From contig OZ024742.1 in assembly GCA_964016885.1 (NCBI GenBank), positions 330,150,001 to 330,214,000 of the forward strand: 64,000 nt of DNA. The letters are read 5' to 3'. The position numbers were made by a program, and so were the translations under genes. Below, piece by piece: positions 21,487 through 59,799 of this stretch. The first letter of the stretch is position 1. The number at the start of each line of letters is the position of its first letter. This DNA is from Eledone cirrhosa (Eukaryota). The notes below the pieces were generated by a model. The model had not been told where the DNA came from. It ran no database searches and was given only the letters and a program-made list of their open reading frames with translations.

Positions 21487-22515
21487 ATTTTTAAAGGAGG
21501 TAAATATTTCACTGAGCACTAAGTACACACTGAGATATATAGGGTGTCTATAATATAATTGTTGTTCTATGGTACTAATTCGATATACCAGAACTATAAA
21601 AATTGATGAGCAGAACAAACAAACATATAAAATCCTTTAAATAAATTAAAAAAATAATTTAAATATCTACCTGTTCATAATGCTATTACCGGCGGTTTCC
21701 ATCCACAAAAGATTGGAAATTCAGAGAATTTCCAACGGAAAGTAGATTTCATCAGATAGCTATTTCCTTTCCATAGGACATACGCCCCATGGTCCGCAAA
21801 TATAAAGCCAACTACCAGCTCGTATGAGTTATAGCCGTTAAAGTGACCCACACGTGACCTGGCCGCTAGAGCAAGCGAGAATATTACAGAAATGTTGAAG
21901 GCTTGGCTGCTAAAAAAATAGCAGTAAGCAACAACGAATTTTTTTCTCTACATAGATTGGAGAATGTATAAAAATGAGGTAAATATCTCACTGAGTACTA
22001 AGTACACATTGACATATATAGGGTGTCTATAATATAATTGTTGTTCTATGGTACTAATTCGAGATACCAGAACTATAAAAAATGATGAGCAGAACAAACA
22101 ATCATTAAACAATCTTTTAATATATTTAAAAATAATTTAAATATCTACCTGTTCGTAATGCTATTCCCGCCGGTTTCCATCCACAAAAGATTGTAAATTC
22201 AGAGAATTTCCAACGGAAAGTAGATTTCATCAGATAGCTATTTCCTTTCTATAGGACATACGTCCCATGGTCCGCAAATATATTGCCAACTACCAGCCCG
22301 TATGTGTTATAGCCGTTGAAGTGACCCAAACGTGACAAGGTCGCTAGAGCAAGCGGGAATATTACAGACATGTTGCCGATGGAAATTCTCTGAATTTCCA
22401 ATCTTTTGTGGATGGAAACCGCCGGGAATAGCATTACGAGCAGGTAGATGTTTAAATTTTTAATTTATTTAAAGGATTGTTTAATGTTTGTTTGTTCTGC
22501 TCATCAATTTTTATA
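21487..22515 (-). mobile_element. Non-coding 478-bp HHR-bearing tandem unit (about 1.85 copies) plus an inverted copy at 22378-22515
   Basis: Direct repeat with period 478; TA tracts at both ends; 40 bp of its terminus also inverted at 21307-21347. Confidence 0.8.
21682..21760 (-). ncRNA. Type I HHR, GUA site (second copy 22160-22238 has a mutated site)
   Basis: GCTAT-CTGATGA-long stem II (ATCTAC..TTGGAAATT/AATTTCCAA..GTGGAT)-GAAA-CC gcc GG-TA-ATAGC. Confidence 0.8.
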
Positions 22516-22678
22516 TTTATATATATATATACATATATATGTATATATATATATATATATATATATATATATATAAATATATATATATATATATATATAT
22601 ATATATATATATATATATATATATATATATATATATATATATATATATATATATATATATATATATATTTATATATAT

Positions 22679-23131
22679 ATGAAAGACGTAAAAAAAGAAA
22701 ATTATAAAAATTAACTTACTTACTAAAATTTCACTCCAACTAATTAGTTTCTGAAATTGAATAAACATAGTTTCCGATGTCACGTGATTGATTCTTTTGA
22801 ATTTGCCACCGACCGAGTAGGCAGTGATTTCTTCAATGTCTTGGAACTTAGTCCACGCTTTGCTTTTTTCCATCCACTGAATTATTTTTGTATAAGTTCC
22901 CTGTGTCCAAGCATTGCCTAGAAACTTAGCTGAGAATAGACTTCCCTGATGACGAAAGGATTTCTCCGTGCGTTTCTTCGGACACTATATTTATTCCCTT
23001 TCAGAAACTAATTAGTTGGAGTGAAATTTTAGTAAGTAAGTTAATTTTTATAATTTTCTTATTTTACGTCTTTCATATTATTATTTCTGCATCCCCTTGC
23101 ATTGAACCACAACGTTACTAAGACAAAAGCT
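22679..23131 (+). mobile_element. Short fold-back insertion in (TA)n with an HHR at 22939-23022
   Basis: 22679-22757 is inverted to 22999-23077. CTGATGA-c-GAAAGG..CCTTTC-a-GAAAC-TAATTA-GTT-GGAGT, with palindromic stem III. Confidence 0.7.
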
Positions 23132-56543: not shown

Positions 56544-58095
56544 TGTGTAATGAGGTATAAACGTTAGAATATGTGTAACAAGGCCAAGACAATGCAGATA
56601 TGGACATAGAAAAAAGAATGCAATAGTGAGAGATATTGATGAGAATTCGTCTTTCACCTTGAATTTATTTAAATGTCCTTAATTTTCGAGATAATATCTC
56701 TTCTTCGGAGGGAAGTAAAAGTCTCAGACCAGCGTCTAAATTTCCAATGAAGCCATGCTGACCGGAAATAGTATAGAGTTCTAACTTTAATATCAAAGAA
56801 TTAAAATTAGGTGGGTAAAGAGTAGTCTCCCTTTAAGAGGGGTTTGTTTATGTTTTTGTTGTGTTTTTTTAAATGTTATATGCGTGCCTGTATATGTGTG
56901 TGGGAGAAAGCATGAAGGTGTAGGTATGTGGGTGTGTGTGTGTGAGTGTGGGAAGATAGGTCTAATCGTAAAAGTGGGGGGTAGGTGTTATCTGGTGTTA
57001 GAACTGGTTTTGTGTGTGTATGTGTGAGAGAGAATAAGTGGAGGTGTGCGCGTGCGTGTGTGTGGGGTGTGTAAAGTGGGGCTAGAGGCCCTATCAGGTT
57101 ATAAATTGGGTGTTGAGCTCTAGTCTATTATTGATTGGTGGATGTACTCAAACTGAACGGATACACGACATCCACCACAAACCGTGCCAGAAAGAACAGA
57201 GGACACCACACCCGAGGCACTAACACTTTCTTCCTGAAGCTCCCACACTTCAGTGAAGAAACAACAACAGCCATCCGCAGAGCCATCTGACGAGAAGGTC
57301 TGGATATTCAACTGGCCCATTCGGGTCCTTCTTTGCGTGGACGGCTAGCTAAGAGACACTCTACCAGACATGACAACTTCTGCAGACTAGCCAACTGCCC
57401 CATCAACGACACAGACCTATGCCACCAGGCTTACGTAGTTTACAGACTAGAGTGTGACAAATGCAACAACTTCTACGTAGGTAGCACCACCAGACCACTC
57501 CACATAAGAATAAAAGAACACCTCAATACTAACGCTTCCTCATTTAAGAAACACCTAGTTAAATGCAAAAACACTGATAAAAACATAACAGTTAGGATAG
57601 AAACTAAGGAAAGAAACCTCGGCAATCTTAGAATCAAGGAAGCACTCATTATAGATAGAACACATCCACCAATCAATAATAGACTAGAGCTCAACACCCA
57701 ATTTATAACCTGATAGGGCCTCTAGCCCCACTTTACACACCCCACACACACGCACGCGCACACCTCCACTTATTCTCTCTCACACATACACACACAAAAC
57801 CAGTTCTAACACCAGATAACACCTACCCCCCACTTTTACGATTAGACCTATCTTCCCACACTCACACACACACACCCACATACCTACACCTTCATGCTTT
57901 CTCCCACACACATATACAGGCACGCATATAACATTAAAAAAAACACAACAAAAACATAAACAAACCCCTCTTAAAGGGAGACTACTCTTTACCCACCTAA
58001 TTTTAATTCTTTGATATTAAAGTTAGAACTCTATACTATTTCCGGTCAGCATGGCTTCATTGGAAATTTAGACGCTGGTCTGAGACTTTTACTTC

Positions 58096-58130
58096 CCTCC
58101 GAAGAAGAGATATTATCTCGAAAATTAAGG
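58096..58130 (+). ncRNA. Ultra-minimal HHR-like motif with a U4C core in the pLTR (also 53544-53578 -, 56677-56711 -)
   Basis: CCT-CCGAAGA-aGAGAT att ATCTC-GAAAATTA-AGG. Confidence 0.6.
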
Positions 58131-59799
58131 ACATTTAAATAAATTCAAGGTGAAAGACGAATTCTCATCAATATCTCTCACTATTGCATTCTTTTGTCTA
58201 TGTCCATATCTGCATTGTCTTGGCCTTATTACACATATTCTAACGTTTATATATATATATATATATATATATATATATATGCATGTGTGTGTGTGTGTGT
58301 GTGTGCGTGTGTGTGTGTGTGTGTGTGTATGTACGTATATATATAAATATATGGATGTGAGCGTGTGTATATAAGGAAACAACAATGAATATCTAAAACA
58401 TTCTATTACTCAAGCATATATATCTACAAGGATTGTATGACATATGGCAAACAACAGTTATCTATTATAATTCGTGAAAATACCTGTTACGTTTTAAATG
58501 ACAAACACCGTCAATATATTTATGTAAGTGGATGCGAAAAACAAATTCAAAGAGAAAACGATAGACAATAGTTTATTGTGAAAGCGTCTAAACAACAACT
58601 TCCGAATAAGACATCTGTTAAGTAGACCTGAACGTAAAAATGAAATGTGATAATAGAATTTATGTTGAGTTACAATCAGTATCATAATAGAGAATTAAAA
58701 TATGAAGTATTATTTGTTTACAAATTATATATTAATAATACGTTTAAGCAATATATGAAATTGGTTTTATTAAATGTTTCAGACGTAAGTAAAGAATACT
58801 ACTTAGTGAATTAATTGTTAACTAATTTATTATAATAAATTAATATCTAATCTATAAATGAAACAATATAATCTCTAATTTGTTATTAAAACTTAAAACA
58901 TTGAAATTAGATATGTTCTATTAAACTCATTTTTTTAAACGTATACATTTATTAACAAAATAATACTATACTGAGCCATTCTTATACCATTCGTTTATAT
59001 AGTATGTTACTTGCAATATAAACTTAATATATACCTAATAATGAATTACAATTTAGATTCTATTTAATAGACATTTAATAGCAAAAATTTATTTTGTGTT
59101 ATAAATATAAAAATAAACATGACAAAAATAGGAGGAATAGAGGAGAAGAGAAACATAAGTAGTTGTGAGGGAATGAAAATCTTTTTTTTTTTTTTTATTA
59201 TTTCGTAAAATTACCAATGGAAATTACATGCAGATATTCACAATGTAATTATTCATTTCACATGACAAACATACATACTGATAATGTGTGGGAAGGTAAA
59301 ATCATGCCCTTTAATGTTTGAAGGTATAAGTGATATCTTACATTATTTTAGAAATTCTATATGACAAAACCATATTGTAAGTGTTTGTATTTACAAACAT
59401 ACTTTGTAATATATAAATTATTTTTTTAATTTACAAAATTATTATTAAGAAAATAACCAAGCACTGTTATTATTGTATAATATCAATACTAAAAAAAAAT
59501 ATTAAAATAAAACGTCATTATGGCAATATTAATTATAATTCAAAATTAAAGAAATAACAAGGTATTTGATATTCACCAAAAAAAATATTTACTCACAATT
59601 TGAAGGTACGTTTCAAAATATAACTACTCAAGACTGAAGAAACCATAATTATGAGAATAGAGATATAGAATATATGTATATAATGTTGATAACTTCTTAA
59701 AATAAGAAACCTACTAATATGTATATAGGATCATCAATCAATCTTGAAAAAATCAAGGAAGTGTAGGAAACAAAGCCGTGGAATATTATTGTAAACAAA

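Follow-up and report, generated by a model that had tools for sequence, protein, structure and literature searches.

Two-armed insertions in (TA)n tracts of Eledone cirrhosa overlap their target at the shorter 3' end and may be primed there by pairing

We analysed 64,000 nucleotides of Eledone cirrhosa DNA (contig OZ024742.1 of assembly GCA_964016885.1, positions 330,150,001 to 330,214,000; hereafter the window, numbered from its first letter), an AT-rich eukaryotic stretch dense in (TA)n tracts. It holds a coding Penelope-like element (PLE), here termed PLE1, and non-coding families of two-armed insertions, here designated by letters. In these insertions one arm runs on to an outer end and bears a tail, and the inverted arm stops at an inner, tail-less site. 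We consider it an even chance that these are two-armed PLE insertions with two fixed end sites per family, the inner site being primed by a nicked (TA)n strand that pairs with a UA word of 3-7 nt in the RNA. End positions are given below with the strand on which the end is read (+ or -).

PLE1 is an endonuclease-bearing PLE of textbook layout, with pseudo-long terminal repeats (pseudo-LTRs), an inverted 5'-truncated arm and a one-sided tail. Its open reading frame (ORF; 53964..56543, minus strand; 860 amino acids counted from the ATG) encodes a reverse transcriptase (RT; PF00078, E 2.5e-16) and, C-terminally, a GIY-YIG endonuclease (PF01541, E 2.3e-5), and the best named relative of the protein is from Octopus bimaculoides (61%), with no reference from a named PLE clade among the matches. 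The DKG motif is present (LPSDKG), as is the pair of cysteines between GIY and YIG that serves as a class criterion; among 27 relatives the first is invariant and the second nearly so, the second being tyrosine in the long copy of PLE1 and cysteine in the inverted copy. The linker before GIY-YIG reads C-x4-C-x7-C, the Neptune/Nematis pattern being CX2-5CxxC. The downstream pseudo-LTR (53383..54012, minus strand; 99.4% to 56516-57145) forms the long 3' end and meets the (TA)n tract at 53353-53381 with 0 nt of overlap. Its terminal 45 nt (53383..53427, minus strand) constitute the tail, which carries the first ten codons and is missing from the inverted 5'-truncated arm (57139..58251, plus strand; 98.9% to 53423-54535), so that the arm at 53383 exceeds the arm at 58247 by 45 nt. 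The short end of the inverted arm, at 58247, overlaps the target by 4 nt (TATA). The upstream pseudo-LTR (56516..57145, minus strand) continues into the ORF and thereby reveals the sequence past both 3' sites. A sister PLE on the plus strand (51835-53352), 53-60% identical to PLE1 in amino acids, has its end at the corresponding position of the tail and lies tail to tail with PLE1, one (TA)14 tract being common to both; the linker of this sister copy, at 52140, reads C-x4-C-x2-C. A second, broken and AT-rich PLE (19642-21346), also with a cysteine-rich linker before GIY-YIG, is joined in opposite orientation to a 42-nt, tail-only piece of family B, with no further family B match found there.

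All 12 comparable two-armed insertions (PLE1, B, C, two of A, two of F, D, H, I, K and M) have unequal outer ends, with the tail extending the long arm by 40-137 nt. The family B insertion (21489..22515) runs from a long end at 21489- to a short end at 22515+ (TATA, 4 nt), with a tail of 107 nt; that of family C (22681..23197) has its short end at 22681- (ATAT, 4 nt), the other arm extending about 123 nt further to (TA)n. The first insertion of family A (23328..28004) pairs a short end at 23328- (TAT, 3 nt) with a long end at 28004+, its tail measuring 137 nt and its arms being 99.1% alike, and the second (29296..29832) pairs a long end at 29296- with a short end at 29832+, at the same site, where the junction is imperfect and was scored 0. 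Family F likewise has two insertions: 35607..36040, with a long end at 35607-, a short end at 36040+ (at least TAT) and a tail of 94 nt, and 63633..63868, with a short end at 63633- (at least 3 nt) and a long arm, reaching 63868+, of 72 nt that consists of tail only. The family D insertion (50076..51742) shows the longest word (ATATATA, 7 nt) at its short end, 50076-, opposite a long end at 51742+ with a 40-nt tail; a single arm of the same family (30053..30286, plus strand) has its long end in register with 51742 and a 5' junction overlap of 2 nt. In family M, a tandem two-armed insertion (48985..49997), the arm ending at 48985- (TATAT, 5 nt) is 61 nt shorter than that ending at 49997+, where a TAT overlap is measured against a tandem junction. 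Family H (39903..40284) has a long end at 39903- and a short end at 40284+ that is diverged at the junction and was scored 0; the old insertion of family K (46224..46940) and the palindrome of family I (12179..13227), whose other arm continues, have short ends at 46224- and 12179-, respectively (each ATATA, 5 nt). The family G copy at 40425..41206 (minus strand) has its long end at 40425-, and the copies ending at 46961-, 63575+ and 31180- all stop at one ATA word, 95 nt before that long end. The tandem and inverted insertion of family E (34360..35425), which has a hammerhead-like core, ends at 34360- (TAT) and is comparable with a tandem junction only. A self-comparison of the window yielded no DNA match between PLE1 and families A-M. 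For families C and K the long end was taken as the next (TA)n, and that of family I was not placed. The long ends at 28004, 29296, 30286, 35607, 40425, 51742, 53382 and 63868 mostly have C as the last base, often AC, abutting (TA)n. A small palindrome at 41294-41452, with a hammerhead-like core and one arm about 67 nt longer that extends to (TA)n, was left uncounted, its shorter arm being without (TA)n.

The overlap was quantified at the flanks of 56 (TA)n arrays, which were oriented into the array and checked for copies continuing past the junction; flanks of low complexity (more than half dinucleotide-periodic) were left out. This yielded 26 comparisons at 22 distinct sites. For the null, the longer copy was broken at random and the break joined to (TA)n, in either random or best phase. 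Shorter 3' ends overlap (TA)n by at least 3 nt in 10 of 12 families. When breaks were drawn from the whole copy, 1.68 were expected in random phase and 3.29 in best phase (P 8e-5); when they were confined to 25 nt either side, the expectations were 2.25 (P 4e-6) and, in best phase, 4.38 (P 9e-4, the strictest value), the full range of P over the nulls being 9e-4 to below 1e-6. With no class dropped, 13 of the 22 sites overlap by at least 3 nt (2.7 or 5.3 expected; P 3e-4 in best phase), and sites outside the first short-end class reach 2 of 10, which is not above chance. The signal is concentrated in one class, the shorter 3' ends. The first version of that class scored 11 of 12 and included 49997 and 34360; both were removed, since each had been compared with a tandem junction in which remnants of the target may persist, and 48985 and 18285 (the latter from a further family) were added to give the revised class.

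These results bear on an original prediction, made from the letters of the window, that element 3' ends fall at internal TA words as a signature of microsatellite-primed initiation. The eight TA words it cited all occur where it placed them; against the longer copy, the six overlaps at 58247+, 49997+, 22515+, 23328-, 22681- and 50076- are 4, 3, 4, 3, 4 and 7 nt, and those at 36040+ and 63633- at least 3 nt each. The cited examples are real, with the qualification that 23325, 22679, 50074 and 63632 denote minus-strand ends, a strand it left unstated; at 49999 the word is present and the evidence is weak, the partner being a tandem-unit junction. Junctions placed at random relative to TA words, which it named as its refutation, were not found after correction for AT content (10 of 12 short ends against 1.7-4.4 expected; worst P 9e-4). 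Its extension to 3' ends in general was not borne out, the PLE1 end at 53382- having no overlap and the fixed end at 56515/56516 having 0-1 nt. Nor was its premise borne out that internal initiation by primer-template pairing is established as a proposal for microsatellite-targeted PLEs: the published internal initiation of a PLE took place at a site non-homologous to the target, and our literature search found no such proposal. Its proposal that nicked (TA)n anneals to UA words in at least seven families fared better in one respect, as overlap occurs in about ten families where pairing would put it, and less well in another, since pairing at the RNA level is indistinguishable here from cutting or repair at the DNA level.

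We propose the following course of events. The GIY-YIG endonuclease would nick both strands of (TA)n. One 3'-OH would then start reverse transcription at the outer site, which is observed, giving the tail-bearing arm; this site would be set by the protein-RNA complex, in keeping with its 0-1 nt of overlap. The other 3'-OH would start at the inner site, observed 40-137 nt upstream together with its overlap, where a UA word is able to pair with the primer end, and would give the tail-less inverted arm. Finally, the two 5'-truncated cDNAs would be joined head to head. The position would be dictated by the element and pairing would merely assist. Because most arms cover overlapping parts of the template, this course would require either two copies of the RNA or one tandem RNA.

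Junction overlap by itself does not separate pairing at the RNA level from cutting or repair at the DNA level, and it is in this respect that the strongest alternative arises. Both arms could be copied with the tail, the TA-preferring endonuclease of the element, or end joining, then cutting one of them at a TA word and joining it to (TA)n. We regard such DNA-level trimming as somewhat unlikely, though fixed site, overlap and one-sidedness would all follow from it too. The tail has been ascribed to endonuclease-mediated resolution of an intermediate (PMC8557442), and the Poseidon element PAc cleaves AT-rich sites inside its own sequence (PMC11167929). Conversely, the tail boundaries of PAc were tied to two RT start sites (PMC11167929), and the arms of the family F insertion at 63633-63868 never overlap. 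Further evidence against trimming is provided by metagenomes, where 45 loci encode relatives. In a handful of related loci, ends just before the ATG were found at L001, L038 and L027, and ends about 20-30 nt after it at L038, L014 and L041, L038 having one of each; L001 and L038, whose targets are not (TA)n, thus end at matching sites without an alternating TA word, which implies that the position is set by the element, whatever the target. TA runs of four or more units occur in 8 of the 45 loci (longest 18 nt) and none was seen as (TA)n flanking an element end, so that these loci are no test of (TA)n overlap. The related PLE at L001 (2940-5960) stands in a unique target and shows a target duplication of 9 bp (12 bp counting shared bases); in this one case 3 nt are common to the target duplication and the tail-less element end, which speaks for pairing at that end. 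No relative was found in viral contigs.

The recurrence of the sites weighs against a second alternative, namely loss of the tail from insertions already in place, through slippage or microhomology-mediated repair that joined an internal TA word to the (TA)n beside it. Such erosion is unlikely in our judgement. Rotifer Penelope copies commonly carry deletions mediated by microhomology (PMC3846280), (TA)n is an unstable sequence, and the junctions at 29832, 40284 and 22515 are ragged. Erosion should nevertheless scatter the ends and shorten either arm or the two together, whereas one arm is shortened in 12 of 12 insertions, even where the arms are 99% alike, and the ends are in register: the long ends within families A, B, D and F, and the short ends in A (2 copies), F (2) and G (3), with 13-18 TA words on offer. 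Were words chosen evenly, the probability of this short-end register would be about 2e-5. Within an insertion the arms of family A are 99.1% and 94.8% identical, compared with 91.9-93.9% between insertions, and share indels; for family F the values are 94.4% within and about 89% between. The short end therefore likely arose anew at each insertion.

A third alternative is the general form of the original prediction, in which nicked (TA)n anneals to any available UA word and so fixes the 3' ends. It is agreeable to the overlap above chance across all 22 sites and to family M, which ends at two different TA words (48985 and 49997). Free choice of words is, however, quite improbable, for each family has one recurrent short site among 13-18 words, relatives in other targets keep matching sites, and the major end of PLE1 is fixed with scarcely any overlap. 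Four public sequencing runs were aligned to 56200-56900; the reads are mostly from diverged copies, and a related species may be their source. Most of the reads that join (TA)n do so at 56515/56516 (110+187 reads in X12 and 148+238 in X13, 683 in total; 17 contigs in X1), and compared with the continuation into the ORF this long end overlaps (TA)n by 0-1 nt. Since the RNA continues into the ORF, the main 3' end of PLE1 is internal and needs no TA word. Read depth across the short site passes from 513 to 500 in X12 and from 628 to 646 in X13, with no clear step, a comparison made uninformative by the geometry of restriction-site-associated DNA (RAD) reads. Loose ends at 56681, where TTAA occurs, may be RAD restriction-site artefacts and were not used. 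The sequencing runs listed included no RNA run holding the sequence, which carries no weight as to expression. Finally, inheritance or chance is most improbable: solo short copies of family G could derive from one tail-less master spread by priming in read-through (UA)n, and flanks of 59-72% A+T favour fortuitous overlap, but the local-composition nulls are exceeded and private variants are common to the long and short arm of one insertion.

Several observations weigh against priming by pairing at the inner site. PAc in vitro starts at positions non-homologous to the cut DNA, the two strands being alike in start site (PMC11167929). The arms overlap in template in 11 of 12 insertions, which single-RNA twin priming does not yield; arms without overlap, with an internal deletion, are confined to the family F insertion at 63633-63868 (1 of 12). 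A link to an ORF exists for PLE1 alone. Three short ends were scored 0 (40284+, 18285- and the second family A copy, 29832+), several of the remaining overlaps are of 3 nt only, and only one family gives a clean view of the sequence past the long end. The short site of PLE1 (about 56556-56560) is not among the six best-supported loose ends listed per run. Lastly, the likeness of arms within an insertion could stem from conversion between palindrome arms.

The architecture of these insertions is already known; the one-sided target overlap is the addition. A literature search, which did not extend to most subscription papers and so missed the early work on Penelope, found no report that PLE ends lacking the tail overlap the target, and passages of PMC12602865, PMC13282606 and two bioRxiv preprints (10.64898/2026.07.22.740005 and 10.1101/2021.04.23.441226) added nothing on junctions. 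The origin of the one-sided tail and inverted arms is disputed, one paper invoking the endonuclease and another two RT start sites. It is possible, if on the doubtful side, that (TA)n-targeted PLEs have acquired in evolution a telomerase-like word for alignment, built into the element at the inner tail boundary, the first strand being primed without pairing and the second by pairing. If true, this division of labour would explain the long-unexplained combination of one-sided tail and inverted arms, the word being kept in about ten families. Overlap at only one of two sites offers a simple handle in vitro, and pairing would tie PLEs that bear an endonuclease to telomeric PLEs and telomerase, with their pairing-assisted priming.

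The pseudo-LTR of PLE1 contains a hammerhead-like core (CCGAAGA, a 5-bp stem and GAAA) at 58099..58123 (plus strand), found also at 56708- and 53575-. An Rfam search of the pseudo-LTR gave no hammerhead match at E up to 10, and its fold has a z of -0.12. A strict hammerhead descriptor found 4 sites only, and cores were scored in its place by a looser scan for core plus stem, in which 15 of 1910 shuffled pieces score. Scripted in this way, the scan detected cores in 7 of the 11 non-coding families first scanned (B, C, E, F, H, K and M) and none in family D; cores were recognised by eye in family A and the 18285 family, and weakly in G and I. The cores lie on the strand reading toward the end and hence give an independent orientation for PLE1, B, C, E, F, H, K and M. 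Stem II of the family A core (27663-27790) is lengthened into a hairpin, about 115 nt long, whose arms are (TA)-rich. A 39-nt core at 56681-56719 also occurs in another abundant read sequence, where one of its two flanks is different and constant (516 and 422 reads). When eight end regions were folded, no structure in common emerged, family A alone standing out (z -3.4), and among the 150 of 227 Rfam matches listed for the whole window only microRNA-type matches below threshold were seen.

Other elements in the window include a LINE at 1763-5800 that carries an RT (962-aa frame) as well as a zf-RVT frame. On one side of it is (AAT)n at 615-658 and on the other (TAA)n at 5771-5800, and its 3' end has undergone duplication and partial inversion (5409-5785); the element resembles microsatellite-targeted R4/Dong elements. 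A LINE-like 3' fragment (30438-31054) has (TA)n on both sides and is 81% like 61163-61360, an RT fragment followed by a PHD-finger match lies at 15861-16604, and an assembly gap of 200 N occupies 44089-44288.

One of the nearest known systems is Poseidon PAc, in which two internal start sites bound the tail and both strands are cut and extended (PMC11167929). As in PAc and the PLE pseudo-LTR tail, we find an inverted 5'-truncated arm, an extension of one arm carrying the first codons, start sites internal to the RNA and fixed positions. PLE tails are described as 30-40 bp and often at one end only (PMC8557442, PMC3846280), whereas those found here reach 137 nt; and unlike in PAc, the inner site overlaps the target by 3-7 nt and the target is (TA)n, that of PAc being an ATT motif.

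Like Neptune, Naiad and Hydra (PMC8557442), these elements combine insertion into (TA)n, a cysteine-rich linker before GIY-YIG, and inverted and tandem structures; the searched passages of that paper do not mention junction microhomology for the three. PLE1 differs from Naiad in its C-terminal endonuclease and from Hydra in having DKG where Hydra has DKT. The same source describes pairing-assisted attachment for telomeric, endonuclease-less PLEs. Athena/Coprina elements share with ours short internal stretches, near hammerhead motifs, that are complementary to the repeat primer; unlike them, the elements described here have an endonuclease, an internal (TA)n repeat as target and a 3-7-nt word on one arm only.

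In L1 twin priming the second nick anneals internally (PMC2837659). Our junctions suggest a comparable event, in which a second nick would prime internally through short microhomology and yield an inverted arm. Microhomology between target and priming site, as in L1-type twin priming, was found in 10 of 12 families, and non-overlapping fragments in only 1 of 12 two-armed insertions, while any target-site duplication around the pair of arms would be hidden in (TA)n; as the arms mostly overlap in template, the insertions are nearer to dual than to twin priming (PMC2837659). They are further distinguished from L1 twin priming in that the internal site is fixed and near the 3' end, poly(A) is absent, and the first site, too, is internal.

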